Of a DNA stretch of 63,042 bases, positions 31,071 through 45,730 are shown in pieces; the first letter of the stretch is position 1; each line of letters starts with the position of its first letter. The stretch lies in the IMG/VR virus record IMGVR_UViG_3300043410_000495, positions 1 to 63,042 of that record; one strand, given 5' to 3'. The position numbers and the translations under genes are program-made. Below the pieces are notes generated by a model that was given only the letters and a program-made list of their open reading frames with translations, was not told the DNA's origin and did not search any database. This stretch comes from a virus (Duplodnaviria; Caudoviricetes).

Positions 31071-33629
31071 ATGCCAAGAGGTAATGCTGGTTTTATAGGT
31101 CCAAAGGCTACACCAAATACGTCTGCCACTGCTGCTGCTGGATTTTTTAAAATGTCTGAAGTTCAGCAATTATTAAGTGCTGGATTATATGGAAGTGGTT
31201 CTCCTTCTGCAAGCATAGTACGAACATTTATATCTACCCAAAACTGGACAGTTCCTGCTGGAGTAACTTCACTTGAAGTGTTAATGCTTGCGGGTGGTGG
31301 GGGTGGTGGTAATACTATGGGAGGTGGCGGCGGTGCTGGTGGTTATGTTTATAACGCAGCATTATCAGTAACACCGGGTCAAACATATGCCATAACTATT
31401 GGATCAGGTGGTGCTGGTGCCACAGATAGAAACACAAAAGGCACAAATGGATCAAATAGCACATTTAAACTTAGTGGAGTTGATTCTCTAACACCAGCAG
31501 TGGGTGGTGGTGGAGGCTGTAGTTGGAACTCAGGTGGTGCTGGTAGTGGAGGATCTGGTGGAGGTGGTGGTGCTGGAGGCAGTTATGCTGCAGGTACAGC
31601 AAGCCCCGCAGGACAAGGTTATGCAGGTGGTGGTGCTGTAGCACCTAGTTATGCTGGATCAGGTGGTGGAGGTGCAGGTGGTGTTGGTACATCGGCTTCC
31701 TCTGGACCTGGCGGACCTGGTATTAGTACATATAGTGATTTAGTTCAAAAATCTAATTACGGAACTCTTTATAACGGAAATTATGTCATCGGTGGAGGTG
31801 GTGGTGGAGGTTGGGGTTCTGGATACGGACCAAGCTCTAGCGGAACTGGCGGACCTGGCGGAGGTGGACAGGGTGGGCAATCGGTGCCTGGTAGTGCTGC
31901 TACGGCTAACACCGGAGGTGGTGGCGGCGGTGGTGGGTATCCTGCCGACTTAAATGGTGGTGCTGGTGGTTCTGGAATAGTTATTGTTAGGTATGCCACC
32001 CCAAACGTAGATGTGTTTACTGGCTCTGGTACTTGGACATGTCCCCCTAGTGTATATAACGTTGAAGCATTAGTTGTTGCGGGTGGTGCTGCTGGTGGAA
32101 ATGGATTTAATCATAGTGCATGTGGTGGAGGAGGTGGTGCTGGTGGTGTCACCTATGGATATCTTTCTGTTACTCCTGGCTCAAATTATTCTGTTGTAGT
32201 TGGAGCAGGTGGTACGTTACCTGTTTCAGGAAGTGGTGTTTGGGGAGGTAATGGATCACCATCTAGTTTTAGCACTGTATCAACTCTTGGTGGAGGAGGT
32301 GGAGCAAGTTATCCAGATTCCGTGGGATACACAGGAGGTTCGGGAGGAGGTGCAGGTGGTGCAGGTGGATCAACTACTGGTAAAAGTATAGGCACAGCTA
32401 ATCAAGGTTTTGGAGGTGGATATCACACAGGAACTGGCGTAAGTAATGGTAGCACAGGTTGTGGCGGTGGTGGCGGAGCAACTGCTGTTGGTGCAAATGG
32501 CGTAAACACTGGTACTGGTGGTAAAGGTGGTGATGGTGTTTATAGTTTTATCACTGGAGCCAATGTTGCCTACGGAGGTGGAGGTGGCGGTGGCGGTTAC
32601 AACACTGGGGGCATAGGTGGAGTTGGGGGTGGAGGTGCTGGATATGGTGGTAACGGTAATGGAACCCCCGGCACAATCAGTACAGGTGGTGGTGGTGGCG
32701 GTGGTGCATGGCAAGGATCACCTGGTAACTCTAGTGGTGGAACTGGCGGCAGTGGCGTTGTTATATTACGTTGGGCACCATCTAGAACAAATGTCACATC
32801 TGTTGAGTTTCTTGCTGTTGCAGGTGGTGGCGGTGGTGGCGGTGGCACATATCACAATGGTGGTGGTGGCGGTGGCGGATATTTTTACAATCCTTCATTC
32901 GCTGTTATGACAGGAACAACTTATTCTGTTGTTGTTGGTGCTGGTGGTGCTTATGGTACAAATGCCTACGGAAGTCAGGGTGGTAATACTCAAATATTTT
33001 CAAGCAACGTTGCAGTTGGTGGTGGAGGAGGAATAAATTTTAATACTACTGCTTCTACTACAAATAGCGGTGGTTCTGGTGGTGGTGGTGCAGGTAGCAG
33101 TGCTGCTGGTGGTAACACTGGTGCCGCTGGTATCAGTGGACAAGGTTATGCTGGTGGTAATGGTTTAAACGGAGCACCTAACTATGGGGCAGGTGGCGGC
33201 GGAGGAGCAGGTGGCGTTGGTGCAAACGGCACATCAACCACTGGTGGAAACGGCGGAGTTGGATCATCTGTTTATACTAGTTGGTTAAGTGCTTGTGGTG
33301 TTGGTCAAAACGTTGGAGGCACATATTATTTTAGTGGTGGTGGAGGTGGTTCTACTTACAATGGAGGAACACCAGGCACTGGAGGCAACGGCGGTGGTGG
33401 TGCTGGTTCAACTGGTAATGCAACAGATGCGACCGCATACACTGGGGGTGGTGGCGGTGGCGGGGAAAGAAGTGGAACTATTGGTGGAAATGGTGGTTCT
33501 GGATTTATGTTAATTAGACATCCTAGTACATCAGCAAATGCAATTATCGGTGGTTCTAATGTAAGTACTATTCAAAGCGGTGGATATACATATTATGTTT
33601 TTAAATCCACTGGTTACATACAGTTTTAA
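31071..33629 (+). CDS. Glycine-rich adhesin-like protein with three tandem Gly-rich domains
   Basis: Three VE.L.VAGG...GGSG.V..R units; starts MPR like 14277. Confidence 0.7.
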   Translation: MPRGNAGFIGPKATPNTSATAAAGFFKMSEVQQLLSAGLYGSGSPSASIVRTFISTQNWTVPAGVTSLEVLMLAGGGGGGNTMGGGGGAGGYVYNAALSVTPGQTYAITIGSGGAGATDRNTKGTNGSNSTFKLSGVDSLTPAVGGGGGCSWNSGGAGSGGSGGGGGAGGSYAAGTASPAGQGYAGGGAVAPSYAGSGGGGAGGVGTSASSGPGGPGISTYSDLVQKSNYGTLYNGNYVIGGGGGGGWGSGYGPSSSGTGGPGGGGQGGQSVPGSAATANTGGGGGGGGYPADLNGGAGGSGIVIVRYATPNVDVFTGSGTWTCPPSVYNVEALVVAGGAAGGNGFNHSACGGGGGAGGVTYGYLSVTPGSNYSVVVGAGGTLPVSGSGVWGGNGSPSSFSTVSTLGGGGGASYPDSVGYTGGSGGGAGGAGGSTTGKSIGTANQGFGGGYHTGTGVSNGSTGCGGGGGATAVGANGVNTGTGGKGGDGVYSFITGANVAYGGGGGGGGYNTGGIGGVGGGGAGYGGNGNGTPGTISTGGGGGGGAWQGSPGNSSGGTGGSGVVILRWAPSRTNVTSVEFLAVAGGGGGGGGTYHNGGGGGGGYFYNPSFAVMTGTTYSVVVGAGGAYGTNAYGSQGGNTQIFSSNVAVGGGGGINFNTTASTTNSGGSGGGGAGSSAAGGNTGAAGISGQGYAGGNGLNGAPNYGAGGGGGAGGVGANGTSTTGGNGGVGSSVYTSWLSACGVGQNVGGTYYFSGGGGGSTYNGGTPGTGGNGGGGAGSTGNATDATAYTGGGGGGGERSGTIGGNGGSGFMLIRHPSTSANAIIGGSNVSTIQSGGYTYYVFKSTGYIQF

Positions 33630-33654: not shown

Positions 33655-34017
33655 ATGGCACATTTTGCTGAATTAGGCGAGAACAACGTAGTACTAAGAG
33701 TTATCGTTGTTGATAATAAAGATACTATGGACACACAAGGAAACGAAGTAGAAGAAATTGGTGCTACTTTTTGCAGAAATTTGTTAGGAGGAACTTGGAA
33801 AAAAACCAGTTACAACGCTAACATTCGTAAAAATTATGCTGGTATTGGATTTACATACGACAGTGATCGTGATGCATTCATACCTCCAAAACCATATCCA
33901 AGTTGGATACTAGATGAGGAAACTTGTCGTTGGAATCCTCCTGTCCCACACCCAACAGATGGTGGTATGTATAACTGGAATGAAGACACGCAGACTTGGG
34001 ATGCTTTACCTCAATAA
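33655..34017 (+). CDS. MAHFA-family protein, partner of Gly-rich adhesins (copy 1)
   Basis: MAHFA...WKKTSYN...RKNYAG.G.TYD..RDAFIPPKPY.SW.LDE.TC.W; paralog of 45371-45730. Confidence 0.7.
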   Translation: MAHFAELGENNVVLRVIVVDNKDTMDTQGNEVEEIGATFCRNLLGGTWKKTSYNANIRKNYAGIGFTYDSDRDAFIPPKPYPSWILDEETCRWNPPVPHPTDGGMYNWNEDTQTWDALPQ

Positions 34018-34020
34018 ATA
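34013..34020 (+). promoter_or_regulatory. T4-late-type promoter heading the 34040-43630 operon
   Basis: AATAAATA 19 nt before ATG 34040. Confidence 0.55.
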
Positions 34021-34039
34021 TAAGATTATAAGGTAAAAG

Positions 34040-35248
34040 ATGGGATTTCCTAATACGCCCAGTAATGGTCAAACCGCAGTAGTAAATGGTATTACGTATA
34101 CCTACAACAGTGCAAGAACTGCATGGGTGCGTAGTGCTGCCACAACTTATAATCTTTATACCGCAAGTAATATAGCACCTACTACTCCTAGTCTAGGCGA
34201 CCAATGGTACTATATTGCGACAGATGTTTTATATGAATATGTAAGCGATGGAACAAATAGTGTATGGGTTGATGTTGGTACATTTGCTGGTCAGAATGGA
34301 AATATCACAAATATTCCAAGTTCTACTTTAAGTGGAAATATAGTTGTTGCGTTAAATGGAATTTATTCTATTGGTGCAGCCACTGGTTATCTATCAAACA
34401 TTTATACAAATAAAACTACCAGTAATACAATTACCACCTCTGGTGGAGTTTTTTGGTCAAATGGAACGTCTTTTTCTAGCCCGCCCGGTGGCAGTAATGG
34501 ACAGTTTCAATTTAACAATTCAAATGTTTTTGGTGGAGCAAATGTATTATTCTCATCTGCGAATGGTAATGTAATTATTACATCTGCAACAACATCTACA
34601 TCAACATCTACTGGTGCTTTGGTAGTTGGTGGTGGCGTTGGTGTTACTGGTAACATTTATACTGCTGGTGGAGTATTTTGGGCAAATGGAGCATCATTCT
34701 CTAGTCCACCAGGTGGCAGTAATGGACAAATTCAATTCAATAGTTCTAGTGCATTTGCTGGAGCAGCCAATGTAAAATATGATTCAACCACTGGTAATTT
34801 ATTAGTTTTATCAACTACAAATGGTACAGCAACTGGTGGTGCGATAACTACACTTGGTGGAGCAAGTTTTGTTGGTAATATTTTTGTTACAGGAAATATT
34901 TTAGCCACAAATCAAATTATTGCTGCGTATTCTGATGAAAGATTAAAAAATAAATTGGGCGCAATATTAAATCCAATTCAAAAAATAAAACAAATTGATA
35001 CGTTTTATTATACACCAAATGATTTAGCACTAAGTATTGGAATCAATGATACTAGAATACAAGTTGGTGTATCTGCACAAAGTGTTGAAAGCGTATTGCC
35101 CGAAGTAGTAACTTCAAGTCCAGTTAATAGTGAATATAAAACAGTTAGTTATGAAAGAATAGTTCCATTACTAATTGCTGCTATCAATGAACAACAACAA
35201 CAAATTGATCAATTACGGGAGATAATTAATGTCCTTCATAATAGGTAA
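34040..35248 (+). CDS. Tail fibre protein with C-terminal peptidase-S74-type intramolecular chaperone
   Basis: MGFPNTPSNGQ anchor; YSDERLK...GVSAQSVESVLPEVV...VSYERIVPLLIAAINEQ coiled coil; internal duplication GGVFWxNGxSFSSPPGGSNGQ. Confidence 0.8.
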   Translation: MGFPNTPSNGQTAVVNGITYTYNSARTAWVRSAATTYNLYTASNIAPTTPSLGDQWYYIATDVLYEYVSDGTNSVWVDVGTFAGQNGNITNIPSSTLSGNIVVALNGIYSIGAATGYLSNIYTNKTTSNTITTSGGVFWSNGTSFSSPPGGSNGQFQFNNSNVFGGANVLFSSANGNVIITSATTSTSTSTGALVVGGGVGVTGNIYTAGGVFWANGASFSSPPGGSNGQIQFNSSSAFAGAANVKYDSTTGNLLVLSTTNGTATGGAITTLGGASFVGNIFVTGNILATNQIIAAYSDERLKNKLGAILNPIQKIKQIDTFYYTPNDLALSIGINDTRIQVGVSAQSVESVLPEVVTSSPVNSEYKTVSYERIVPLLIAAINEQQQQIDQLREIINVLHNR

Positions 35249-36416
35249 TACAGTAGTTGGTACTACTGGTATTGTCGCTCCTGTTTTTACAAATAATAAT
35301 AGACCAACCAATGCTACTACTGGTTATGTTATCTATAATACAGATGCACAACAATTACAAGGTTATTTTGGAAATATAGGTGGTCAAAGTGGTATATGGA
35401 GAACCATAGGGGGTAATATTGCTACAGGTTCTGCATATCTTTACAGAACAGTAATTACAACAGGCTACGTAATGGGAGGGTATCAAAATAGTAGCCCATG
35501 GAAGAATGTCAACCGTATGAATCATTCCACAGATGTTATGACAAATCTTGGTGATCTATTAACGAATTCTGGTGCATATACTAGTGGAACAAATAATAAC
35601 AGTAAAGGATTTATTTGGTCAACTGATAATAGTTTTCCTGGAAGTAGCACAACTACTTCTGCGTTTTCAATGATTACCGAAACTGGTTCTGGTTTAAACA
35701 CAAATTGGAATATGCGTGTTAATAGAAATAATATGGGTACTATTTTTAAAGAAACCTTGTATGCCTATATTGTGGGTGGTGGAAATGCAGACGTAGATGT
35801 ATTTAATTTGACAACAGAAACAATGTTGGCTGATTTTACTTACATTGGCAATTACATACAAATGGGTGGAGTAACTCCGTATAACACTCCTATCAGTGGA
35901 GATACAAGTAGCAGTGATAGTTCAAATGCCATTGGTACAATGAGCGACGAAACTGCAGGATACGGATACTGCGATAACGGTACATTTAGATTGACGTTTG
36001 CAACTTCTACAGTCAGTGGAATAGATCCAGCACGATCTGGATTGAGTGGTGATTATTATATAAGTGGTGCAAATGTTAATTTAGGCGCACACGGACAACA
36101 AAAAGGTATTAATTCCAAATTAAACAGAGGTTACGCAGGTAACGAAGGAAATTATAATGGAGGATATAACCTGCGTCGTTGGGTATTTCCTACACAAACA
36201 TACACAACTATTTCTAAACCTATTGGCAATTCTGGAGAAGAAAATTTTGATATGGGACAAGATCATCAATACATGATGGGTTGTTACGATGGATCACAAA
36301 ACAATCGTGGATGGAGATTTAGTTATACCACAGATACAGGATACGAGTTGGGTGCAGGTAGTGTAAGAACAGGTGTTGCTGGAGGAAGTTCTGGCGCATG
36401 TTGTTGGAAAGGTTGA
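35229..36416 (+). CDS. Putative beta-propeller virion protein (copy 1)
   Basis: N-terminal RP...IYNT fibre motif, then about 6 GY/AYxxGG-like repeats; ends ACCWKG. Confidence 0.55.
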   Translation: MSFIIGNTVVGTTGIVAPVFTNNNRPTNATTGYVIYNTDAQQLQGYFGNIGGQSGIWRTIGGNIATGSAYLYRTVITTGYVMGGYQNSSPWKNVNRMNHSTDVMTNLGDLLTNSGAYTSGTNNNSKGFIWSTDNSFPGSSTTTSAFSMITETGSGLNTNWNMRVNRNNMGTIFKETLYAYIVGGGNADVDVFNLTTETMLADFTYIGNYIQMGGVTPYNTPISGDTSSSDSSNAIGTMSDETAGYGYCDNGTFRLTFATSTVSGIDPARSGLSGDYYISGANVNLGAHGQQKGINSKLNRGYAGNEGNYNGGYNLRRWVFPTQTYTTISKPIGNSGEENFDMGQDHQYMMGCYDGSQNNRGWRFSYTTDTGYELGAGSVRTGVAGGSSGACCWKG

Positions 36417-36417
36417 G

Positions 36418-37488
36418 ATGGTTTTTAAATTAAATGCTAATATAGTTATTGATGCAAATGGTGTAGTAATTCCTAGTTTTACTACTGGTACTAGGCCAAG
36501 CAGTCCTGTTAATGGACAAATAATCTATAATACCAGTACCAATTTGATGGAAATTTATGACACTGGTTTGTGGAAAGATGCCACATCAAGTGCAAGTGGT
36601 GGGGCGTTTTTATATCGTCAAATAATTACTACTGGTTATGTTATGGGTGGATATCAAAGTAGTAGTCCATGGAAAAATGTAAATAAAATGGTTCATGCCA
36701 CAGATGTGATGACTAATTTAGGAGACTTATTAGCATATGCTGGAGCATACACTTCTGGATTCTGTAGCACAAGTCGTGGGTTTCTTTGGTCAGCCGATGG
36801 ATCATGGCCTGGTACTAGCGCACAAACAGTGGCATTTAACTTAGCCACAGAAACAACAGCAGGAACAAATACAAATTGGAACATGAGCGTTGGTCGTGAT
36901 GACTGTGGAACTGGATTTAAAGAACAAAGTTATGCATACATCACGGGTGGTGGTAGTAGTGTAATTGATGTGTTTACAGCAGCAACCGAAACTCAAACAG
37001 TTGGTGTTGGTACTGGAATTACAGGAGATTCACAACAATCTGGGGCTACTTCTTTTAGTAGCGAAACTGCGGCATATTATTGGGGTAATGAAAGTAAAAA
37101 ATTAACTTTTAGTTCGGGTACTACATTTTCAATTGCAACAACAACAGTTGGAGGAAGTGGCAGTCAACAGAAAGGTATAAGTAGTAAGTTAGGTAAAGGG
37201 TATTGTGGTAACGAAGGAACCTATAATGGTGGATATAATCTTCGCCGCTGGAATACTGCAACTGATACTCAAAATACTACTTGCTCAAAACCAGTAGGAA
37301 ATAGTGGTGAAGAAAATTTTGATATGGGTCAAGCGTGGCAATACATGTATGGATGTTACGATGGAGCACAAAATAACCGAGGTTGGAAATTCAATTATAA
37401 TACTGAAACTGGATACGAATTAGGCGCAGGTAGTGTGCGCACTGGAGTTCCCGGTGGAAGTTCAGGACATGCAGTTTGGAAAGGATAA
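36418..37488 (+). CDS. Putative beta-propeller virion protein (copy 2)
   Basis: Tandem paralog (TTGYVMGGYQ.SSPWKNVN, GNEG.YNGGYNLRRW, GNSGEENFDMGQ, WKG end); start moved to ATG 36418. Confidence 0.55.
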   Translation: MVFKLNANIVIDANGVVIPSFTTGTRPSSPVNGQIIYNTSTNLMEIYDTGLWKDATSSASGGAFLYRQIITTGYVMGGYQSSSPWKNVNKMVHATDVMTNLGDLLAYAGAYTSGFCSTSRGFLWSADGSWPGTSAQTVAFNLATETTAGTNTNWNMSVGRDDCGTGFKEQSYAYITGGGSSVIDVFTAATETQTVGVGTGITGDSQQSGATSFSSETAAYYWGNESKKLTFSSGTTFSIATTTVGGSGSQQKGISSKLGKGYCGNEGTYNGGYNLRRWNTATDTQNTTCSKPVGNSGEENFDMGQAWQYMYGCYDGAQNNRGWKFNYNTETGYELGAGSVRTGVPGGSSGHAVWKG

Positions 37489-37490
37489 AA

Positions 37491-38282
37491 ATGCATTTAG
37501 ATAAGTTTTCAAAAGATGATATTATCACTGATGTTAGTGGTATGTCTGAAGATCAAAAAGATATTATTGCTGTTGCAATGAGCAAAGAGTGGACAACGCC
37601 TGAGTTTAAAGTTAAAAACTTTATTGGCAATGCACAAGTAACACCATTTGCTAAATTGCGTCAGTATATTATAGAAATGAATACTCGTGAACATGCAGTT
37701 CAGGGTATGGAATATGAAGTTAAAAAAATTGAATTAGAAATTGAATTAGAACAGGAACGTGCAAACGAAACCACTAGTCCAGCACAAAAGAAGATTCATG
37801 AACTTGAGATATTAAAACTCACAGCAGGTCTTAAACGTAGTCAATTGAGATTGCGTGATGCGTATAATGAAAGAGAAATGTACATTAAGATCATTGAAGA
37901 GTTTAATAATAGTCCAGAAGGACATTTACCAAACGGAACTAGATTAATTGATGTTTTTGAAGATCCAGAAATTTCGGAACAATTAGAAAAAGAATACTGG
38001 ACAATGCGACTTGCAAAACAAACAGCATTGGATATGATAGCATATGGACGTGCTGGTGTTGGTAATATGGAAGCAGTCACTATGCTTGAGCCAGAACAAC
38101 AAATGGAAGTTATGCAAATTGCATGTGAATATTTTGTTAGAAATGAAATGCGCACAAACTATTTGTTAAATTCTGTAAATGAAGCAATTCAGCAAGGTAA
38201 ATTGCCTCCATCAGAATTGGCAAAACAATTAATATTAAATCAGGATAAACAGGATGTACCTACTATTCAGAACAGTCAGTGA
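37491..38282 (+). CDS. Coiled-coil hypothetical protein
   Basis: E/K/L-rich helical protein; ATG 37491 after AAGGA. Confidence 0.6.
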   Translation: MHLDKFSKDDIITDVSGMSEDQKDIIAVAMSKEWTTPEFKVKNFIGNAQVTPFAKLRQYIIEMNTREHAVQGMEYEVKKIELEIELEQERANETTSPAQKKIHELEILKLTAGLKRSQLRLRDAYNEREMYIKIIEEFNNSPEGHLPNGTRLIDVFEDPEISEQLEKEYWTMRLAKQTALDMIAYGRAGVGNMEAVTMLEPEQQMEVMQIACEYFVRNEMRTNYLLNSVNEAIQQGKLPPSELAKQLILNQDKQDVPTIQNSQ

Positions 38283-38982
38283 TCCCCAATTGGGGATTAT
38301 TAAACGCACAGGACAATGGCTAGATTTTGTCATTGGCTACTTAGATGATTCTGTCAAAGATGTTGTAAAAATAGATCATCTAAATGCCGTTGTGATTGAA
38401 GATGAAGCAGTTGCATTGGCATGGAAATTTGCTGGAAATTATTCTGGATATGTTTCTGTACGTGCAAATACATTAACTAACGATCAATTGAATATTATTA
38501 GTTCTGTTGAAGATCAATCATTGAAAGTAAAATATTACTTAACTGATGAAGACAAGTACAACGGAACTAAGTTTATGAAAATTGGGTTAAGAAAGTTTCT
38601 AGACGAAGTGTATGATCGTAGACTGCGACATGTTAATTTAGGAGTAACTGATTTAGAACAAAATACGTGGCCGCAACAACGTTCCGAAGCAGAAGCATAT
38701 AACCTAGATAATGCTGCTTCTACTCCTATGCTTGATGCATTGGCAGCAGCACGTAATATCACTAAAGCAGAAATGGTTCAAAAAGTATTATCTGCCATTC
38801 AAAATTATAATCAACAAATCAGTGACCTATTGGCTACAAAGCAGGGAATTGAATCCGAAATAAAAAATTGCCTATCCATGGCAGACTTAAATATCCTTAT
38901 GCATCAACGCTTTGGTTATAATATGCCAGCAGCGCAACAGCAGGATCTTGATTATCAAGGTGGTTCGGTGTATAATTTATAA
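38254..38982 (+). CDS. Putative tail-fibre assembly / chaperone-like protein
   Basis: EQNTWPQQRSEAEAY...TPMLDALAAARNITKAEMVQKV resembles a motif seen in fibre-associated phage proteins. Confidence 0.5.
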   Translation: MYLLFRTVSDPQLGIIKRTGQWLDFVIGYLDDSVKDVVKIDHLNAVVIEDEAVALAWKFAGNYSGYVSVRANTLTNDQLNIISSVEDQSLKVKYYLTDEDKYNGTKFMKIGLRKFLDEVYDRRLRHVNLGVTDLEQNTWPQQRSEAEAYNLDNAASTPMLDALAAARNITKAEMVQKVLSAIQNYNQQISDLLATKQGIESEIKNCLSMADLNILMHQRFGYNMPAAQQQDLDYQGGSVYNL

Positions 38983-38998
38983 GAACCACTTATAAATT

Positions 38999-40615
38999 AT
39001 GTTTTCAATACCAATTAACCCGAAACTCAGGGAATCTGAGTTTAAACGATTCTATTCTTTTTTACAAGAAAATAAAGATGTGATTTATGATCTTTATTTT
39101 ACTAGTAGAATGCCTCCATTTGTCCAAGATGCAATGGGTGACGTATTTGATGTAAATGATATGGCACCGATTGAAACTGCATTGTATATTCAACAAAGTC
39201 TAGGCATTCCAGTTTCTGCTACCTTTAATAATGTTATGGTTAGACCTAGCCAAGAAAACTTGGATTTGTTTATTCATAATTTTAGAATGTTATACGACAT
39301 AGGTGTGCGATCAGCAACTATTCCACATTCGCATTGGTTAGCAACAAGACAAATACAAAAAGAATTCCCCGAATTACAAATCAAAAATACTATATTACGT
39401 AACGTAACACAAGCACAAGAAGTAGCACGTCTTGCTGAAGTTGGATTTCATTATATAAATCTTGATCGTGATTTGATGCGTAATAGAGACGAGTTGATTA
39501 AAATTCGTCGTGCCGCAGACAAGTATGGCGTAAAGATCAGTTTACTTGGTAATGAGGGATGTTTGGGTGGTTGTCCTATGATGGACGAACATTTTCAATT
39601 TAATAATACTAGAACAGGAAATAGTCCTCAATATTTTAATGATAGTATCAGTCGTGTCAGTTGTCCTAAATGGGAAATTGAAGATTCTGCAACATCATTG
39701 AAAACAGCAAACATTCCCCCATGGAGAGAAGATTGGGTAGACCTCCTACAATACGTAGATGTATTTAAAATGCATGGTAGAGAAAGTGTTAAACAATTGT
39801 TTAATACCATGGATATTGTTAAACGATATCGTAATAATGAACCTATACTTTTTAATGATTTTGATGAATACCTAAACGAAACAAATCTTGTAAACAAGCC
39901 TATTACTGTATGGCGAGAAAAGATTAAAAATTGTAAATTTGATTGTTGGGAATGTAATTATTGTGACCAAGTATACCAAGCAAAATCTAAAATAAAACAA
40001 CACCCACTAGTGTACGCTGTCACTAAAGAATTAGTTGATAGTGTTAATGTAACGTTACAATCATCTGTTCAAGGTCTTACCTCAAATAGAGTCAGACAAT
40101 TACTGTATTCGCTGGCAAAACACTGTGATAATTATCTAGAAATTGGTTCGGCAATGGGAGCCACTGCTACAGCAGTTGCCGAATCTAATATTCACATGCA
40201 CTGTGTTGATAGTTGGAAATTGAATGTTCAACCAGAATCTGGTGAATTTGAACTTCCAGACAACACAAAAGATATATTTGTTAAAAATATGAATGGATAT
40301 GATAATTTAATTATTCATGATTGTGATCTATTTTACACAGAACGAAAAAAAATAAAAGACATTGATTTGTTTTTTTATGATGGCTCACACGATGTTAACA
40401 TTACTGCCCGGGCCATAAGTCACTATTATGATTGTTTTGCAGACACTGCAATATTAGTATTTGATGATGCAAATTGGCAAGGGGTAGTTCAAGGTGCTGA
40501 TTTGGGCATTAGTATGTCTAAACTTAAAGTATTATATTCAAAGAAATTATTAAATTCTGCCGAAAATAAAGGTATGTGGTGGAATGGGTTATATATTGTG
40601 GTGGTTCAAAAATGA
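38999..40615 (+). CDS. Peptidase-U32-family Fe-S protein fused to class I SAM-dependent methyltransferase
   Basis: INLDRDLMR, NEGCLGGCP....H...SC, DVFKMHGRE (U32 KxxGR), CKFDCWECNYC; then YLEIGSAMG, CVDSW, DLFFYDGSH, LVFDDANW (Methyltransf_24-like). Confidence 0.75.
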   Translation: MFSIPINPKLRESEFKRFYSFLQENKDVIYDLYFTSRMPPFVQDAMGDVFDVNDMAPIETALYIQQSLGIPVSATFNNVMVRPSQENLDLFIHNFRMLYDIGVRSATIPHSHWLATRQIQKEFPELQIKNTILRNVTQAQEVARLAEVGFHYINLDRDLMRNRDELIKIRRAADKYGVKISLLGNEGCLGGCPMMDEHFQFNNTRTGNSPQYFNDSISRVSCPKWEIEDSATSLKTANIPPWREDWVDLLQYVDVFKMHGRESVKQLFNTMDIVKRYRNNEPILFNDFDEYLNETNLVNKPITVWREKIKNCKFDCWECNYCDQVYQAKSKIKQHPLVYAVTKELVDSVNVTLQSSVQGLTSNRVRQLLYSLAKHCDNYLEIGSAMGATATAVAESNIHMHCVDSWKLNVQPESGEFELPDNTKDIFVKNMNGYDNLIIHDCDLFYTERKKIKDIDLFFYDGSHDVNITARAISHYYDCFADTAILVFDDANWQGVVQGADLGISMSKLKVLYSKKLLNSAENKGMWWNGLYIVVVQK

Positions 40616-41223
40616 AACGGTTTCCTATAATACAAGCAGACGTATTTGCGACTAACTGTGGTACACCAGAACAACGAAAGCAACTCATTGATGAAGCATG
40701 GGAAGCATATAAACAAAATGATTCTACGCTAGGATTTAGTAATCGTGGATGCTGGCGTAGCCATTTCAAATACAAGAATATTGATTGGTTGATGGATGAA
40801 ATACGTAATTTAGTTAATGAAGCAGGTAATCATTATCAAATGCAAGACCCACTGTATAAAGAAAAATCAAGTTTTTTTGGCGCAGCCGAAGTAAACTATT
40901 GGACTAACATTAATCAAATTGGCAGTAAAAATGCATTACATAATCATCAGTTACATCACTACGTAGCAGTGTATTACCTACAAGGCACAGGTACTGGCGA
41001 TATCATGTTTAGCAATCCATCTAATCTATTAGAAGGATGCAACCCTTATGCTCCTTTTGTCAGCGCATCAACATTTAGCCCAGATGATGGCGATTTATAT
41101 GTATGGCCAGCATGGTTGCCACATGAAACGGAAATCAATAACTCTGGAAGACATAGAATTAATATAGCCTTCAATATTAGATTCCAAGCACCTCAAAATA
41201 TATACAATGAAAAATACTATTGA
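40612..41223 (+). CDS. 2OG-Fe(II) oxygenase (HxH...H type)
   Basis: WTNIN, LHNH...VAVYYLQ, GDLYVWPAWLPHET, RINIAFN; ATGA overlap with the upstream stop. Confidence 0.8.
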   Translation: MKRFPIIQADVFATNCGTPEQRKQLIDEAWEAYKQNDSTLGFSNRGCWRSHFKYKNIDWLMDEIRNLVNEAGNHYQMQDPLYKEKSSFFGAAEVNYWTNINQIGSKNALHNHQLHHYVAVYYLQGTGTGDIMFSNPSNLLEGCNPYAPFVSASTFSPDDGDLYVWPAWLPHETEINNSGRHRINIAFNIRFQAPQNIYNEKYY

Positions 41224-41959
41224 ATTCTATTCTGATATTGCAGGTGTTGTTGATGCATATCCTATAGTAAAACCAACCGACGTGCTACCAAATTGGATAG
41301 CAACAGTTCGTGCTGATTATAAACAAGCAGACAAAACACAACCACATCTATACAGATGTCCTGGTATTTTTGACTTATTCAATTATGGGTTCATTGTTCC
41401 AGCATGGCATGATGTTACATTGAATACAGATGGTGAAAACTATGGTTGGCTGGTTCCAAATGATGACCTAAAATTATTAATGGGTTCAAATCAAGTAGCA
41501 CAAATACACAGTCATAAAACAGTGGCAAAATACTTACCTCGCCCACCGTATGCGCATCCTAGTGTATTAAAACTAAACACACCGTGGCATGTAGTAGCGC
41601 CAAAAGGTATTAAACTATTAATTACTGCTGTGCCATATCCTGATAGTTACGACTTCCAAGCGCTGACTGGAATTCTTGATCCTGCTATTAGCACAGAAGT
41701 AAACATTCAATTAAATTGGCACACACCAATTGGAACAAAAACAATACGTGCAGGTACTCCTCTTGCGCATATTATACCAATTAGCGAACGCAACTTAGAA
41801 CTGATTGTTAGAGACAAAAACAGTTGGGATGAGATGTGGTCACTAAAACGCCGATATTTTAATGCAATGAATTTTGTATTGAATAGAAGCAAAATCAAAT
41901 CCATGTATGAACGGCATTTCCATGGTGGTAAATGTCCATTTCATTTCTGGAAAAAATAG
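41207..41959 (+). CDS. Hypothetical protein (DUF6065-like phage family) with C-terminal KCPFH
   Basis: RCPGIFD...GFIVPAW, KLNTPW...PKG, GILD, IRAGTPLAHIIP pattern, often seen next to phage 2OG oxygenases. Confidence 0.5.
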   Translation: MKNTIEFYSDIAGVVDAYPIVKPTDVLPNWIATVRADYKQADKTQPHLYRCPGIFDLFNYGFIVPAWHDVTLNTDGENYGWLVPNDDLKLLMGSNQVAQIHSHKTVAKYLPRPPYAHPSVLKLNTPWHVVAPKGIKLLITAVPYPDSYDFQALTGILDPAISTEVNIQLNWHTPIGTKTIRAGTPLAHIIPISERNLELIVRDKNSWDEMWSLKRRYFNAMNFVLNRSKIKSMYERHFHGGKCPFHFWKK

Positions 41960-41967
41960 GAGAAACT

Positions 41968-43011
41968 ATGGAGTTCATAACTTCTGTCCTACTAAAGGAC
42001 ATCACATATCTATGGATGATTTTCTTCATTATGATCAGTGCTGGACTAGCAAAAGAGTATCAACTCTTCGCCCCAGCATTTGCCTATGTAAGAAACACAT
42101 TTCGTAGTAATAGATTTGTTGTCGCTCTCTTAAGTGCAATAGGTGGTGTGCTACCCATTGAAGGTCGTGTTACTGTATCAGCAGGCTTGTTAGATACAGT
42201 AGCACCTAAAGATGGAGCAGGGCGTCAAAAAATGGGTATTGTTGATTATCTAGCAACTCACCACTATTATATGTGGTCACCACTAGAGAAAACAGTTATT
42301 CTTCCTATTGCTGCTTTTGGTCTTACTTACTCTGCGTGGTTACAAACCATAGCACCATTATTAGTTGTTAGTTTGGCTTTTATTGGTTGGTATGTTTGGA
42401 CACAGGTAAAAGAAGATGAAGTAGTTATTACACCTGGTAATTTTAAATTGTCTGCAGTTATTCGTAATGTATTTCCAATGATTATCGCAATTGGTTTTTA
42501 CATTTATAATGAACGTTGGATGATTAGTTGCTTTGGATTTTTAACTCTCTACTATATGTTTATCACTCAACAATGGAATTTCAAGAAGTTATTTGGATAT
42601 GTTCGTTGGGATGTTTTAGCAATAGTGGCAGTAGTTATAATGGTAGGAAACTACTTTAAGAGTAACAATGCATTATTTGAAACTATTATACGTGGCACAG
42701 TGATTGATCCAACTACATTTGTTGGTATGTTGATCATATCTGTACTAGGGTTTGTAATTAGTTTTCTAATGGGTTCAAGTGGTAAGTTTGTGGCAATCGC
42801 TGTGCTTATGGCACAAGTGTTCGGAACTGAATATTTCTTATGGTTCTTTGCTGTGGATTTCACTGCTTATTTGTTAAGTCCAACTCACAAGTGTATTAGT
42901 GTGGGTAATAGATATTTTGGAACACCTTTGAATACCTATTATCGTGCATTAAGTGCGTGGGGTTTAATTATGCTGGTAACAGCAGGACTATTTACATTTA
43001 TAAGGATTTAA
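41968..43011 (+). CDS. Multi-pass inner-membrane transporter-like protein (DUF401 / IT superfamily-like)
   Basis: About 10 hydrophobic segments; GGVLPIEGRVTVSA, THHYYMWSPLE, YLLSPTHKC...YF resemble DUF401 motifs; SD AGGAGA before ATG 41968. Confidence 0.65.
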   Translation: MEFITSVLLKDITYLWMIFFIMISAGLAKEYQLFAPAFAYVRNTFRSNRFVVALLSAIGGVLPIEGRVTVSAGLLDTVAPKDGAGRQKMGIVDYLATHHYYMWSPLEKTVILPIAAFGLTYSAWLQTIAPLLVVSLAFIGWYVWTQVKEDEVVITPGNFKLSAVIRNVFPMIIAIGFYIYNERWMISCFGFLTLYYMFITQQWNFKKLFGYVRWDVLAIVAVVIMVGNYFKSNNALFETIIRGTVIDPTTFVGMLIISVLGFVISFLMGSSGKFVAIAVLMAQVFGTEYFLWFFAVDFTAYLLSPTHKCISVGNRYFGTPLNTYYRALSAWGLIMLVTAGLFTFIRI

Positions 43012-43012
43012 A

Positions 43013-43630
43013 ATGAAAAAACTTTTTGTAGTACTTTTGATGTTGTCTAACTTTGCTTTTGCAGAATCTGGTCAACCTCGTGTTGCATTTGAATATGAAC
43101 ATGAAACTTCTAAGAATGGGGGGAACAATATTGCATTTAGCATGTATCCCGGAATTCAGTGGAAAGAAGGATGGCTAAATCGTGCTGAATTAATGCTTGA
43201 AGGGAATCAGGACAATATGTACGATAACGGAAAAACTGGTAATAATACTCAAACTAAAATGGGTGTTAGATTACGCACAGATTTTAAACTAGGAGCAGGA
43301 TTTAGTGGTTATGTGCGTGGACTAGTTGGACGTGCAATGAGTAATGAAGAAAATTATGATTATGTATACTTAGAACCAGCAATTAAGTATAGTTTTAATA
43401 ATACTTGGAGTTGGACGGTTAGTGATCGTATTATTCGTACAATGGATGGAACAGATGGCAAGGACGTAAATAAATTGCGCTTTGGTCCAAATTGGGAAAT
43501 TAATAAAAACAATGTACTAGAACTACGATATGCTCTAGTTTATTATGCAGATAGTCATAATATTCTAAACCCAAATAATGGGGCTAGAAAGGCTGATGCT
43601 TGGATTTTAGAATATGCATATAAGTTCTAA
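43013..43630 (+). CDS. Outer-membrane beta-barrel (small porin, KdgM-like)
   Basis: Sec signal MKKLFVVLLMLSNFAFA, amphipathic beta strands, C-terminal EYAYKF (terminal Phe BAM signal). Confidence 0.75.
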   Translation: MKKLFVVLLMLSNFAFAESGQPRVAFEYEHETSKNGGNNIAFSMYPGIQWKEGWLNRAELMLEGNQDNMYDNGKTGNNTQTKMGVRLRTDFKLGAGFSGYVRGLVGRAMSNEENYDYVYLEPAIKYSFNNTWSWTVSDRIIRTMDGTDGKDVNKLRFGPNWEINKNNVLELRYALVYYADSHNILNPNNGARKADAWILEYAYKF

Positions 43631-43651
43631 AATACCATTTTAATCCAATTT

Positions 43652-43678
43652 TAGGGGGCTTCGGCTCCCTATTTTTTT
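43652..43678 (+). terminator. Rho-independent terminator closing the operon
   Basis: TAGGGGGC-TTCG-GCTCCCTA-TTTTTTT. Confidence 0.85.
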
Positions 43679-43721: not shown

Positions 43722-45356
43722 ATGGCATTTCCAATTTCACCCGTTAATGGACAAACAACAACTGTTAACGGAATACGATATATATATGCATCAACGACAA
43801 ATACCTGGTCTAGAATTCCTTCTGGAAAGTATACTGCGGCCGCAACTGGCCCTAGTAATCCCTCCACAGGTGATCACTGGTATAATACCAGTGAGGATAC
43901 CCTATACGAATATGTAAGCGACGGTGTTAGCAGTTACTGGATAGATATACAAACAGGTTTTGTTGGTGGTAGTTCAACAGGACTGCTATCAAACACAACA
44001 ATAGCCGGCACACTAACAATGACTGGTAATATTTTACCATCAGCAAATGTTACATATGACCTAGGTTCGTCGGCATATAGATTTAGAGATTTGTGGTTAT
44101 CGGGTAATACTATTCGCTTAGGTGGAGCAACAATTAGTGCTACAGCAGACACTTTAGTTTTATCCAACCCCGGCGGGGGATCGTATGTATTAGCAGGAAA
44201 TGCAATTACCGGTAATACCACTAACACCTATGGAAATATTACTGTATCAGCAAATGTAATTACATCTAATGTGTATGCAGATAGATTTTTCTATTCCAAT
44301 GGTACAGCATTTAGTAGCGGATCAAGTTACGGTAATACAGAAGTAGCTACTTACTTAACTTCAAATGTTTCTGGGTTAGTCTCAACTACATCCGGAATAC
44401 AACTACCGTCGGGAACCACAGCACAAAGACCAGCTAATCCTCAACCTGGAGTAATGCGATACAACACTACACTTACTAGAGTAGAAGCATATATGCCTGG
44501 TGCAGGTTGGTCGGAAGTTGTTGGAGATGTATATAGTATTGAATATCTAGCTATTGCTGGTGGTGGCGGTGGAGGTACAGGTGGTAGTCAAGACTCTGGT
44601 GGCGGTGGAGGTGCTGGCGGTGTAGTTGGTGCTACAGTAACTGGCGTTGTGCCTGGCACGATATTAACTATTACTGTTGGTGCAGGTGCAGCTGGATTTA
44701 CTTCTGGCGGTCAAAACGGAAATCCTGGTGCAAACACAACAATCACAGCAACAGGTTATTCATTTACAACAGCCCTTAAAGGTGGATATGGAGTAGGTGA
44801 ATCAGGAAATAGAAATGGTGGTAGTGGTTGGGGTTCAGGTGGTGGTGCTGGTGGATGGAGTGGAACACAAGGTACCGGAACAGCAGGACAGGGATACGAT
44901 GGTGGCGCAGTAGGATTGTCTGGTGGTGGGTCATCAGGTGGTGGTGGTGGAGCAGGTGGTGCTGGTACACACAATGGTGGAGTAGGAACGTCATCGTATT
45001 CTGCTTGGGGTACAGCAACCGGAAAAGGTCAAAATGTAGGAGGCACATATTATTTTGCTGGCGGTGGCGGCGGCGCCGGTGATGGAAGAAATATTAGTGC
45101 AGGAGGCACTGGTGGATCAGGTGGCGGTGGTGCTGGTGGATGGAACGGAGGTACAGGCGATGGTGTAGTAAATACCGGCAGTGGTGGTGGTGGTGGCACT
45201 GGTAGTAGTTACGGACCACAAACGTCAGGTGCAGGTGGATCAGGGATTGTTATTCTTCGTTATCTTGGCTCCCAAAGAGGCCTCGGAGGCAACATTGTTA
45301 CAGCGGCTGGATACACGTACCATACGTTTACTGGTTCAGGATCATACACAGCTTAA
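43722..45356 (+). CDS. Fibre protein with glycine-rich tip
   Basis: MAFPISPVNGQ anchor, GDHWY...WID, LPSGTTAQRP, poly-Gly, YTYHTF. Confidence 0.75.
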   Translation: MAFPISPVNGQTTTVNGIRYIYASTTNTWSRIPSGKYTAAATGPSNPSTGDHWYNTSEDTLYEYVSDGVSSYWIDIQTGFVGGSSTGLLSNTTIAGTLTMTGNILPSANVTYDLGSSAYRFRDLWLSGNTIRLGGATISATADTLVLSNPGGGSYVLAGNAITGNTTNTYGNITVSANVITSNVYADRFFYSNGTAFSSGSSYGNTEVATYLTSNVSGLVSTTSGIQLPSGTTAQRPANPQPGVMRYNTTLTRVEAYMPGAGWSEVVGDVYSIEYLAIAGGGGGGTGGSQDSGGGGGAGGVVGATVTGVVPGTILTITVGAGAAGFTSGGQNGNPGANTTITATGYSFTTALKGGYGVGESGNRNGGSGWGSGGGAGGWSGTQGTGTAGQGYDGGAVGLSGGGSSGGGGGAGGAGTHNGGVGTSSYSAWGTATGKGQNVGGTYYFAGGGGGAGDGRNISAGGTGGSGGGGAGGWNGGTGDGVVNTGSGGGGGTGSSYGPQTSGAGGSGIVILRYLGSQRGLGGNIVTAAGYTYHTFTGSGSYTA

Positions 45357-45370: not shown

Positions 45371-45730
45371 ATGGCACACTTTGCAAAACTTGGGCTTGAC
45401 AACATAGTAATAGAAGTACTAGTTGTTAACAACATTGATACAATGACTCCGCAAGGAGAAGAAATAGAAGAAATTGGTATAGAGTTTTTAAGAAAGTTAA
45501 CTGGACACGAAACCTGGAAACAAACATCGTATAACGGAAATTTTCGTAAAAATTATGCAGCCGAAGGGTATACATACGATAGTACTCGGGATGCATTTAT
45601 TCCTCCAAAACCATATGCGTCTTGGATATTAGATGAGAATACATGTTGGTGGTACCCTCCGATACCCTACCCAACAGATGGTAATTCGTATAAATGGAAC
45701 GAGGATACCCAAAATTGGGAATCTGTATAA
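45371..45730 (+). CDS. MAHFA-family protein (copy 2)
   Basis: Paralog of 33655-34017, again directly after a Gly-rich gene. Confidence 0.7.
   Translation: MAHFAKLGLDNIVIEVLVVNNIDTMTPQGEEIEEIGIEFLRKLTGHETWKQTSYNGNFRKNYAAEGYTYDSTRDAFIPPKPYASWILDENTCWWYPPIPYPTDGNSYKWNEDTQNWESV

Follow-up and report, generated by a model that had tools for sequence, protein, structure and literature searches.

C5 hydroxylation of RNA pyrimidines depends on the U32 proteins TrhP and RlhA, and the methyltransferase YrrM, which is TrmR, acts after the U32 proteins TrhP1 and TrhP2, according to the relevant passages of PMC6599085. The step that yields mo5U in B. subtilis needs the O-methyltransferase gene yrrM, which lies beside an operon of the U32 genes yrrN and yrrO (passages of PMC6599085 and PMC6158493). 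E. coli annotation assigns two further U32 proteins, UbiU and UbiV, to ubiquinone biosynthesis; among the U32-family functions in the literature consulted, we met no U32-dependent protein modification. Other systems relevant here are the cyanophage dioxygenase/halogenase islands (Syn9 gp43-gp54) and bacterial neighbourhoods combining a TonB receptor, Trp halogenase, SapC and 2OG oxygenase; for the bacterial neighbourhoods, passages of Iyer et al. (2010, PMC2938197) predict a halogenated siderophore-like product. Carriers of the IT superfamily (DUF401/TIGR00529 and the metal-citrate CitMHS proteins) that stand behind an outer-membrane channel or TonB receptor, and endosialidase-type tail fibres, complete the comparison. 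We compared these systems with a ten-gene phage cassette, of which literature searches found no published description.

The cassette lies in an uncultured T4-like marine phage. The window, meaning the whole stretch of DNA that was analysed, is 63,042 nt long and comprises positions 1-63,042 of IMG/VR record IMGVR_UViG_3300043410_000495 (Caudoviricetes, Duplodnaviria). In the ORF list, ten plus-strand ORFs occupy positions 34040-43630; the features of the block are as follows.

34014..34020, plus strand: T4-type late promoter-like box ATAAATA, 26 nt 5' of the g1 ATG
34040..35248, plus strand: g1, tail fibre with C-terminal S74 intramolecular chaperone (Pfam Peptidase_S74)
35229..36416, plus strand: g2, Kelch-type propeller, paralog of g3 (phrog_1417 at 3.7e-59)
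36418..37488, plus strand: g3, six-blade Kelch propeller with fibre-type N-terminal module (phrog_1417, phrog_1325, fold)
37491..38282, plus strand: g4, soluble protein of no known family, obligate companion of g6 (phrog_1409)
38254..38982, plus strand: g5, soluble protein of no known family, second companion (phrog_1604)
38999..40615, plus strand: g6, U32-superfamily-like putative Fe-S TIM barrel plus class I SAM methyltransferase (fold, Cys, Pfam)
40612..41223, plus strand: g7, 2OG-Fe(II) oxygenase (PF13759, phrog_81)
41207..41959, plus strand: g8, Syn9 gp43-like protein with invariant RCPG cysteine motif (phrog_7084)
41968..43011, plus strand: g9, DUF401-type inner-membrane permease (PF04165, hydrophobicity)
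43013..43630, plus strand: g10, small outer-membrane beta-barrel-like protein with signal-peptide-like N-terminus and C-terminal YKF (relatives in family f2)
43652..43678, plus strand: intrinsic terminator with 8-bp stem, TTCG loop and T7 run (terminator-like site scan)

Using homolog-supported starts for g3 (36418; alternative GTG at 36373), g4 (37491), g7 (40612; alternative GTG at 40576) and g9 (41968; alternative ATG at 41932), the spacing between neighbours from g1 to g10 is -29 to +16 nt, with overlaps or abutments throughout; outside the block, the gaps are 22 nt 5' of g1 and 91 nt 3' of g10. The motif ATAAATA is depleted in the window (14 observed versus 31.7 +/- 6.1 in shuffles), and 9 of the 14 copies begin 26-37 nt 5' of the point where a same-strand ORF with 110 aa or more starts. 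These nine include the copies at 34014 (g1) and 43692 (the next fibre gene), and the window motif scan found none between them. The site at 43652-43671 (8 pairs, TTCG loop, T7 run) is the highest-ranking terminator-like site across 30-48 kb. Both flanks are fibre-like, with three phrog_2295 matches, two copies (31071-33629 and 43722-45356) being followed by a small phrog_7759 gene. Spacing, box, terminator and flanks confirm the original prediction of ten near-abutting or overlapping genes between a late box and a UUCG terminator in the tail-fibre block, and its late-operon layout is upheld: the block is a compact late-type unit within fibre genes, for which we infer a single late transcript. 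GC content varies little across the ten genes (0.33-0.39); composition is therefore uninformative in either direction on moron origin.

The first genes of the block resemble components of a tail tip. Residues 298-358 of g1 match Pfam Peptidase_S74 (32.7 bits, cut-off 22), as expected for the S74-chaperoned fibre that had been proposed, and tail families (tail-fibre, baseplate-wedge and tail-protein) account for 10 of its 13 PHROG matches, which include long tail fibre distal ends. The C-terminal S74 intramolecular chaperone is common to g1 and endosialidase-type tail fibres and is ordinary per se; what sets g1 apart is that it heads an operon with propellers and enzymes. The assignment of g2 and g3 as propeller paralogs also held, as the two are 53% identical and the AF2 model of g3 (pLDDT 83.9) is a six-blade Kelch propeller matching the Keap1 Kelch domain (E 2e-13, TMt 0.74-0.79). 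No HxH iron-binding motifs were found in the window's fibres and propellers.

The cultured phage records that contain g6 number 126, as do those that contain g4, and g3 is present in 123; the three genes occupy adjacent positions and break down among cyanophages in the same way, so that the neighbourhood check bore out the fusion gene as one accompanied by a propeller and g4. Propeller, g4 and g6 are found together in the same 123 cyanophage records, where the order propeller, g4, g5, g6 is conserved; g4 always lies just 5' of g6, and g5-like genes adjoin g4 and g6 in cyanophages, IMG/VR loci and L088. The association extends to Ralstonia jumbo phage RP12, in which a collagen-repeat gene is followed by a g4-like gene, g6N, DUF401 and a virion structural protein, and to a Leptospirales MAG, in which a 1523-aa DUF6519/Laminin_G_3 protein is followed by g4-like, g5-like, g6N and DUF401 genes; both copies of g6N lack the methyltransferase. 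No tool used assigned a fold or family to g4 or g5, and none supports the earlier labels of coiled-coil for g4 and fibre-assembly-like for g5. Since fibre, propeller or adhesin genes always adjoin the g4-g5-g6 core, both in phages and in the one bacterium, what is modified is most likely a fibre-tip protein or a ligand that this protein carries.

This conservation bears on whether the block has any functional unity. A permissive site between fibre genes might simply collect unrelated morons that are read from the nearest late promoter, and such a site would suit the variable content 3' of g6 among relatives and the occurrence of g9 in many unrelated contexts, for example beside gp32 or NUDIX genes. 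We consider this very unlikely, given the gene order kept over 123 cyanophage records, the identical order of g4, g5, g6N and DUF401 in a bacterium, and the start/stop codon overlaps all through the block.

The enzyme at the center of the core, g6, comprises a U32-like TIM barrel (residues 1-345) and a methyltransferase (residues about 380-490). In its AF2 model (pLDDT 93.1), the N-domain has as top structural match the U32 protein Mk0906 (5d88; Z 16.9, rmsd 3.1 A, 224 aligned residues), the next being a generic TIM barrel (Z 13.0). Seven cysteines are invariant over 56 sequences (C188, C192, C222, C312, C316, C319 and C322) and most likely hold a putative Fe-S cluster; conserved cysteines directly follow the strand aligned with the U32 motif region. 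A g6 profile (A1) found homologs in 8 of 301 Spirochaetota genomes, and one of five homologs scanned passes PF01136 (35.3 bits, cut-off 22.4), with another at 20.6 bits. In hhalign comparisons with E. coli TrhP, UbiU and UbiV, g6 58-176 is in register with TrhP 48-159 at E 0.0014, though with a probability of only 17%, and language-model look-alikes of g6 are clusters named Peptidase U32 (scores 0.90-0.92). Against these likenesses, Pfam U32 (PF01136) matches neither g6 nor anything else in the window even at E 10, and 10 diverse representatives match no Pfam family. The cysteine spacing is C-x3-C in g6 versus C-x6-C in E. coli TrhP, and g6 has an extra invariant C-x3-C-x2-C-x2-C block at residues 312-322. 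By its fold and its intermediate bacterial homologs, the N-domain is thus a very divergent U32-superfamily TIM barrel. The C-domain passes Pfam Methyltransf_24 (29.0 bits, cut-off 26.3). Hence the methyltransferase half of the proposed U32-methyltransferase fusion stands, and the U32 half can be upheld only in the sense of a divergent relationship to the superfamily. Neither solved structures nor NCBIfam gave a match to the methyltransferase, so the "O-methyl" reading rests on the name that the source, JGI, gives to g6 homologs, "predicted O-methyltransferase YrrM".

Like TrhP followed by TrmR (passages of PMC6599085), g6 pairs a hydroxylase-type domain with a methyltransferase, but TrmR is a separate gene, whereas Methyltransf_24 is fused to the U32-like domain in g6. 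By analogy with TrhP, RlhA and the TrhP-TrmR pairing, g6 would most likely carry out hydroxylation and then O-methylation, acting on an aromatic or heteroaromatic carbon and subsequently on the same carbon site, with g4 and g5 as possible helpers. The same analogy could make g6 a chance-placed RNA modifier that converts U34 of tRNAs or an rRNA pyrimidine to its 5-hydroxy and then 5-methoxy form, tuning how AT-rich phage genes are decoded; the RNA roles of TrhP, RlhA and yrrM given in passages of PMC6599085 and PMC6158493, and the YrrM name of its homologs, would fit. Unlike the known U32 factors, however, g6 has g4, g5 and a Kelch propeller as constant companions and is part of a late fibre operon of a phage. 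That operon is structural and lies away from replication and translation genes, the adjacency to propeller, g4 and g5 recurs in 123 cyanophage records, and in RP12 and a bacterium g6N, there without the methyltransferase, adjoins genes of adhesin or fibre type. No TrmR or TrhP family model matches g6, and an RNA target appears highly improbable.

The two genes downstream of g6 belong to a separate dioxygenase/halogenase island. The predicted 2OG-Fe(II) oxygenase g7 passes PF13759 (50.7 bits, cut-off 27) and is of the classical type found in the islands described in passages of PMC2938197. In tblastn searches, g8 matches Syn9 gp43 (1e-23) and genes adjoining halogenases, and it shows a weak DUF6065 match. 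Its invariant cysteine lies within RCPG (residues 50-53); the CPFH tail for which it had been singled out is present in the majority of homologs but is not invariant. Relatives of the block add further components of the island type, namely a Trp halogenase in 20 of 80 loci, a cupin in 15, a nearby Dps-like gene in 14 and TonB-dependent receptors, for which the siderophore-receptor subfamily TIGR01783 is the best-matching model (2.4e-58; 198.3 bits, below the curated cut-off of 223.5). The window itself has one oxygenase only and no halogenase, Dps, cupin or TonB receptor, and the passages of PMC2938197 on these systems name no U32-like/methyltransferase enzyme, DUF401 permease, Kelch propeller, g4 or g5.

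These additions raise the possibility of a small-molecule pathway, in which the enzymes would tailor an amino-acid-derived, siderophore- or quinone-like metabolite, DUF401 and a barrel or TonB receptor would import it or its iron complex, and the fibre genes would be mere neighbours or binders of the compound. Besides the accessory genes of relatives, the halogenated product predicted for the bacterial neighbourhoods (passages of PMC2938197) is consistent with such a pathway. So is the annotation of UbiU and UbiV. Ubiquinone synthesis alternates ring hydroxylation and O-methylation. We nevertheless find the pathway improbable: a gene that would make a scaffold, such as a peptide synthetase or prenyltransferase, is absent from the window, as are the relatives' additions, the TIGR01783 score falls short of its cut-off, and the g4-g5-g6 core tracks fibre and propeller genes rather than the transporter or the oxygenases.

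The last two genes form the membrane transport pair. The DUF401-like label of g9 is supported by PF04165 (41.9 bits, cut-off 24) and by 7 hydrophobic segments in a crude scan, but g9 is phage-encoded and of a divergent subfamily, scoring 57.7 bits on TIGR00529 (cut-off 378.4). In a six-frame search, the Leptospirales copy reaches 25.9 bits with PF04165, and the RP12 ortholog has a sub-threshold CitMHS match (27.2 bits, cut-off 31.9). In the literature search made here, no substrate emerged for any DUF401 protein. Canonical DUF401 genes at 20 loci of Spirochaetota showed nothing U32-like in the flanking 1.5 kb. The "porin" label of g10 fared less well, as g10 itself scores 17.9 bits against a cut-off of 28.7, with sub-threshold Pfam matches to OMP_b-brl and Phenol_MetA_deg. 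Yet g10 is 44-46% identical to two members of family f2 directly 3' of g9 in L069 and L082, and a representative of that family passes the OMP_b-brl cut-off. No match to g10 was found in cultured phages. At the 78 loci with at least 900 nt downstream of g9, products of the directly 3' gene include a small OMP barrel (26 loci), a signal-peptide protein of 297 aa (10), a Plug-like protein of 587 aa (5) and a TonB-dependent receptor (3). The predicted succession of an inner-membrane permease and an outer-membrane protein is therefore a recurrent pair across phage loci, as in the IT-superfamily arrangement.

The original prediction went further and joined all ten genes in one self-contained, obligate system that imports a substrate or cofactor across both host membranes and hydroxylates and methylates the co-encoded virion appendage. 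Tight coupling under one late box and one terminator speaks for it, as does the fact that, in the distant lineages RP12, L037, L074, L070 and the Leptospirales MAG, g9 overlaps or abuts g6 or g6N at its end. Every one of the 12 cultured phage records with g9 also has g6, and in L076 and L077, which are the closest relatives, the g1-to-g9 order is retained. Both lack g10, however, as do cultured phages. Conversely, 114 of the 126 g6-bearing cultured records are without g9, so the expected co-occurrence of U32, DUF401-like and propeller genes holds for g6, g4 and the propeller but reaches g9 in just 12. Of the 46 IMG/VR loci with enough upstream DNA, only 22 place g9 downstream of g6 at a distance of up to 10 kb, and in five long g9 records g6 is far off in two and was not found in three, one of which is a complete 286-kb phage genome. 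Identities are incongruent (g9 70-78% where g6 is 49-55%; g9 only 60% where g6 is 69%). Thus g9 also moves by itself, and g7 and g8, the latter in Syn9-type islands, come from a different source. An obligate ten-gene system is accordingly unlikely, and since the block is put together from parts that travel separately, the first interpretation receives partial support only.

We instead give an about even chance to a reading in which separable modules together form a single late transcription unit of ten genes that would modify the fibre tip or its ligand. The S74-chaperoned fibre g1 and the Kelch propellers g2 and g3, with their fibre-type N-terminal module, would be the receptor-binding hardware, and g4, g5 and g6 would be a conserved tailoring core. 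The independently moving accessories would comprise g7 and g8, from the cyanophage dioxygenase/halogenase island, and g9 and g10, an uptake pair that may open a new small-solute route for the infected cell. At the corresponding place, relatives have genes for a siderophore-type TonB receptor and a Dps ferritin, which makes a metal chelate or an organic acid a plausible solute.

The window is a piece, 63 kb long, of a T4-like phage genome. CheckV puts its completeness at 17%, no near-identical DNA was found among cultured phages, and its proteins share at most about 45% identity with their cyanomyovirus (Kyanoviridae) counterparts. Because that completeness was assigned at 63 kb, and because contigs of relatives reached through the permease gene g9 run to 214-286 kb, the phage genome may be very large. 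The ten genes of the late block, g1-g10, are embedded in a run of fibre-like genes, which includes the following:

25675-30324: fibre-like gene with a phrog_2295 C-terminal region
31071-33629: fibre-like gene with a phrog_2295 C-terminal region
33655-34017: small phrog_7759 gene, after the fibre-like gene at 31071-33629
43722-45356: fibre-like gene with a phrog_2295 C-terminal region
45371-45730: small phrog_7759 gene, after the fibre-like gene at 43722-45356

The combination of a phrog_2295 gene with a small phrog_7759 gene looks like a repeated fibre-plus-helper pair. Elsewhere in the window, 15258-21248 holds a 1996-aa ORF that matches no PHROG family at E <= 1e-5.

Ten plus-strand ORFs occupy 34040-43630, with the start codons of g3 (36418), g4 (37491), g7 (40612), and g9 (41968) chosen by homolog lengths; the successive junctions measure -20, +1, +2, -29, +16, -4, -17, +8, and +1 nt. 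The sequence ATAAATA, the core of the T4 late box, occurs 14 times in the window versus 31.7 +/- 6.1 times in shuffles, so the motif is generally avoided; by our reading, 9 of the 14 begin 26-37 nt 5' of the start codon of a same-strand ORF of at least 110 aa. One copy lies at 34014, before g1, and another at 43692, before the next fibre gene, with none between them. A hairpin at 43652-43671 (eight pairs, TTCG loop, T7 tail) is the top terminator-like site within 30-48 kb. The block thus has the sequence features of a T4-type late unit, with a box about 25-35 nt before g1, none internal, and a terminator at the end, and judging from these features g1-g10 would be read as a single late transcript. 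The packed ORFs, late box, and terminator described in the original prediction are therefore real. A late-box-like TATAAAT within 38983-38998 is placed 2-9 nt upstream of the start codon of g6, too near the ATG to serve that gene.

That the unit is a composite of fibre hardware, a conserved tailoring core (g4, g5, and g6), two genes of a dioxygenase/halogenase island, and a mobile uptake pair is well supported. The fibre hardware begins with g1, which carries a Peptidase_S74 domain (PF13884; residues 298-358 of 402, 32.7 bits vs a cut-off of 22) and resembles the distal ends of long tail fibres in its PHROG matches. The g2 and g3 proteins are 53% identical, and both belong to phrog_1417. The AF2 model of g3 (pLDDT 83.9) is a six-blade Kelch propeller that matches the Kelch domains of Keap1 with E about 2e-13 and TMt 0.74-0.79; the propeller gave no match to Pfam Kelch by sequence. 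A short N-terminal module of g3 is common to fibre genes (phrog_1325, phrog_25721). HxH iron-binding motifs of the T4 gp37 kind are absent from all seven proteins inspected, which comprise the fibres, the propellers, and large structural proteins nearby. The cyanophage propeller is T4-GC_347, and the virion proteomics of PMC3037559 bears on whether particles contain the products of T4-GC_347, 352, 353, and 354.

Co-occurrence of the genes was searched among 50,697 phage records. Both g6 and g4 occur in 126 of these, with an identical breakdown (77 Synechococcus, 38 Cyanophage, 8 Prochlorococcus, and 3 Ralstonia) and with g4 directly 5' of g6, and g3 is found in 123 with the same cyanophage breakdown. 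The gene order in metaG-MbCM1 and S-H25 is propeller, g5, g4, g6, a small ORF, and g9. Ralstonia jumbo phage RP12 has a collagen-repeat gene, a g4-like gene, a stand-alone version of g6N (the U32-like N-terminal domain of g6, residues 1-345), a DUF401 gene, and a virion structural protein. A single-protein query of genome contigs returned one locus, in a Leptospirales chromosome, where the gene for a 1523-aa DUF6519/DUF2341/Laminin_G_3 protein heads a series of g4-like, g5-like, g6N, DUF401, and patatin genes; this g6N has no methyltransferase. The presence of g4, g5, and g6N after fibre- or adhesin-like genes in very distant genomes is our main argument that their target is a protein of this kind or something that it binds. 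Set beside this recurrence, the idea that unrelated genes merely accumulated at the fibre site, among the fibre-like genes that surround the block, seems highly improbable.

Assignment of g6 to U32, as originally proposed, stands as a superfamily relationship, by fold and by transitive profile, and not as a match to the PF01136 model. That model gave no match at E up to 10, either on g6 or in a six-frame search of the window (the control matched in 10 of 14 genomes); ten diverse representatives of the g6N family matched no Pfam family, and searches of solved structures with g6 by sequence and profile returned chance-level matches only. The AlphaFold model of g6 (pLDDT 93.1, pTM 0.90) contains a TIM barrel, and the top structural match of g6N is the U32 protein Mk0906 (5d88; Z 16.9, rmsd 3.1 A over 224 of 247 residues); generic barrels score four Z units lower, with the runner-up at Z 13.0. 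By Foldseek, 5d88 also has the top query-normalised TM-score among the matches listed (0.53 by query, 0.71 by target). Searching 301 Spirochaetota genomes with a profile of the g6N family brought up weaker homologs in eight. Five of the eight were scanned against PF01136: one passes (L101:7929-9053, 35.3 bits vs a cut-off of 22.4), one falls just below (L099:7837-8892, 20.6 bits), and three have no match, which links g6N transitively to PF01136-passing proteins. Alignment of g6N with E. coli TrhP/UbiU/UbiV by hhalign is weak (probability 17%, E 0.0014); it is in register and stops just short of the Cys motif. Language-model look-alikes of g6N are clusters named Peptidase U32. From the Mk0906 fold, the Spirochaetota link, the weak hhalign result, and the look-alikes, we file g6N as a divergent relative within the U32 superfamily rather than a member of the Pfam family. 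The PF01136-passing Spirochaetota homolog adjoins a 3-dehydroquinate synthase II and an NMT1/THI5-like protein (L101 7929-11180), a neighbourhood that fits the known link of U32 proteins to the shikimate pathway and prephenate.

The g6N family is large: a word-index search returns 1896 proteins at E <= 0.001 (clusters at 90% identity), and a full scan finds 375 representatives of 50%-identity clusters. As the hallmark of U32 we took the cysteine ligands of its 4Fe-4S cluster and the E...C...C motif on which activity depends. Seven cysteines (C188, C192, C222, C312, C316, C319, and C322) are invariant across 56 g6N sequences, and E186, C188, C192, and C222, all invariant or nearly so, come after the strand equivalent to that of U32. 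The spacing is C-x3-C in g6N vs C-x6-C in E. coli TrhP, and four extra invariant cysteines lie at 312-322. By their pattern, the g6N cysteines form a putative site for an Fe-S cluster.

The C-terminal part of g6, a class I SAM methyltransferase, provides the only Pfam match of the protein (Methyltransf_24, 29.0 bits vs 26.3). No curated TrmR or catechol-O-methyltransferase-type match and no NCBIfam match was obtained for a TrmR/YrrM-type assignment, nor any solved-structure match by sequence or profile; "YrrM" is the JGI name given to g6 homologs. Taken most simply, the fusion would hydroxylate and then O-methylate its substrate. The available text of PMC6599085 describes TrhP and RlhA as needed for prephenate-dependent C5 hydroxylation of RNA pyrimidines, and the B. 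subtilis U32 genes yrrN and yrrO as preceding the O-methyltransferase YrrM (= TrmR) in action. The hydroxylase-like and methyltransferase parts are fused in g6, whereas yrrN/yrrO and yrrM are separate genes in B. subtilis. These precedents raise the possibility that g6 modifies RNA, which, with the core found beside fibre- and adhesin-like genes and no curated TrmR-type match, we hold to be remote.

Our preferred reading, to which as a whole we give about even odds, is hydroxylation and O-methylation of an aromatic group, carried either by the fibre tip or by its ligand. Here g4 and g5 would help g6 in tailoring the tip or the ligand, and g9 and g10 would import a small anionic or metal-chelated solute; both the chemistry and the target of this modification are what we infer. 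Set against it are the silence of PF01136 on g6, a methyltransferase with no assignment closer than Methyltransf_24, fibres that lack HxH motifs, and the fact that we met no U32-dependent modification of a protein. If g6 does modify the fibre tip, the modification would add a new layer to host recognition by marine phages, give the U32 superfamily a role besides its known ones in RNA modification and ubiquinone synthesis, and account for the place of enzyme genes in a structural module. The components of the cassette belong to known superfamilies, and our literature search turned up no account of the cassette, of a phage U32-like enzyme, or of a phage DUF401. The propeller-g4-g5-g6 set is present in 123 cultured cyanophage records, and each of these four kinds of gene is annotated "hypothetical"; the set is widespread, unstudied, and testable in cultured cyanophages. 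Cultured carriers include S-H25 on Synechococcus WH8102, which has g9 as well, and S-RIM2, P-SSM4, and P-HM2.

The two presumed helpers, g4 (phrog_1409) and g5 (phrog_1604), match no Pfam or NCBIfam family, which leaves their earlier labels, "coiled-coil" and "fibre-assembly-like", without support. A predicted complex of g6N with g4 scored 0.00, which is no evidence for or against the pairing. In two IMG/VR loci (L021 8085-9375 and L041 8114-9392), g4-like and g5-like genes come after a Trp halogenase and before an oxygenase and g9, and no g6 lies within 10 kb of them; the two helpers may also work with other enzymes.

The next two genes, g7 and g8, correspond to genes of the dioxygenase/halogenase island of Iyer et al., as presented in the accessible part of PMC2938197, which gives a dUTPase-like fold for the Syn9 gp43 family. 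The g7 protein is a 2OG-Fe(II) oxygenase (PF13759, 50.7 bits vs 27; TIGR02466 at 43.6 bits is under its cut-off of 62.5). The g8 protein reaches only 16.7 bits vs 26.6 for DUF6065; by tblastn it matches Syn9 gp43 at 1e-23 over 94% of its length, its look-alike is the Atlas cluster "Gp43 family" (score 0.97), and it also matches genes adjoining tryptophan halogenases in S-RIM44 and other cyanophages. Its invariant cysteine is that of an RCPG motif, not of the C-terminal CPFH.

The unit ends with a transport pair. The g9 protein is a DUF401-type permease (PF04165, residues 27-347, 41.9 bits vs 24) with seven hydrophobic segments in a crude scan, far under the TIGR00529 cut-off (57.7 vs 378.4). 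The g10 protein has sub-threshold barrel matches only (OMP_b-brl, PF13505, 17.9 bits vs 28.7), with a signal-peptide-like N-terminus and a C-terminal YKF as read from its sequence. It is 44-46% identical to members of a neighbour family directly 3' of g9 in two IMG/VR loci (L069 and L082), and the representative of that family, directly after g9 in L055, passed OMP_b-brl at 33 bits. In 78 loci the sequence extends 900 nt or more past g9, and there we identified the next gene: 26 encode a small OMP barrel, 10 a 297-aa protein that starts like a signal peptide, 5 a 587-aa protein matching Plug weakly, and 3 a TonB-dependent receptor, whose best model is a siderophore-receptor subfamily, under that model's cut-off. 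The description of these as two-membrane transport genes is therefore fair, and g9 coupled to an outer-membrane protein recurs as a mobile module. This pair, sometimes accompanied by Dps, suggests that some phages install their own two-membrane uptake late in infection, and it offers a first functional lead for DUF401, for which our search turned up no known substrate. In 20 canonical Spirochaetota DUF401 loci, no U32-like, g4-like, or TrhP/UbiU/UbiV-like ORF lies within about 1.5 kb, so these give no clue to the substrate.

The tie between this pair and the enzyme core was not borne out. All 12 cultured phage records with g9 also have g6, with the two about 56 kb apart in S-CAM4 and ACG-2014j. 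The g9 search yielded 80 IMG/VR loci; upstream sequence reaches 7 kb or more in 46, and g6 is present there in 22; in five long g9 records, g6 is far away in two and missing from three, one of them a complete 286-kb genome. The g9 gene is 70-78% identical to the window copy in loci where g6 is 49-55% identical, and in the closest relatives (L076 and L077) g9 is only 60% identical and g6 69%; this incongruence suggests exchange between lineages. An obligate ten-gene system, as the close packing of the ORFs might imply, is accordingly unlikely. Similarly improbable is a small-molecule or siderophore-like pathway. In its favour, a Dps-like ferritin is near g9 in 14 of the 80 loci, a Trp halogenase in 20, and a cupin in 15; against it, the window itself has none of these, and the core recurs after fibre- or adhesin-like genes.

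A bolder view, which we consider very unlikely, takes g6N for an O2-independent aromatic-ring hydroxylase of the Kelch fibre-tip protein. Its U32-like domain would convert conserved propeller tyrosines, or another aromatic residue, to catechol-type residues that the fused methyltransferase would cap. DUF401, its outer-membrane partner (barrel or TonB receptor), and the Dps of relatives would form a phage-encoded metal-chelate (iron) uptake route feeding the Fe-S and Fe(II) enzymes of the cassette. If true, the U32 superfamily would gain its first protein substrate, a phage would be seen to tailor its receptor-binding tip chemically, and the cassette would be tied to the Ferrojan Horse hypothesis (10.1101/674382), the idea of iron-uptake biology being exploited by marine phages.

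A larger clade of relatives (L004, L009, L015, L028, L029, and similar loci, at about 2900-14200) has an extended cluster with, in this order, propellers, g4, a roughly 1-kb gap (no g5 by tblastn), g6, Trp halogenase, and 2OG oxygenase, continuing with a cupin, a g8-like gene, a 116-aa membrane protein, g9, a Plug-like or signal-peptide protein, and a Dps ferritin. Finally, a NUDIX hydrolase gene and a 457-aa gene, whose families (f8 and f5) come after g9 in many IMG/VR loci, lie about 8 kb further downstream in the window, at 50871-52636 on the minus strand.
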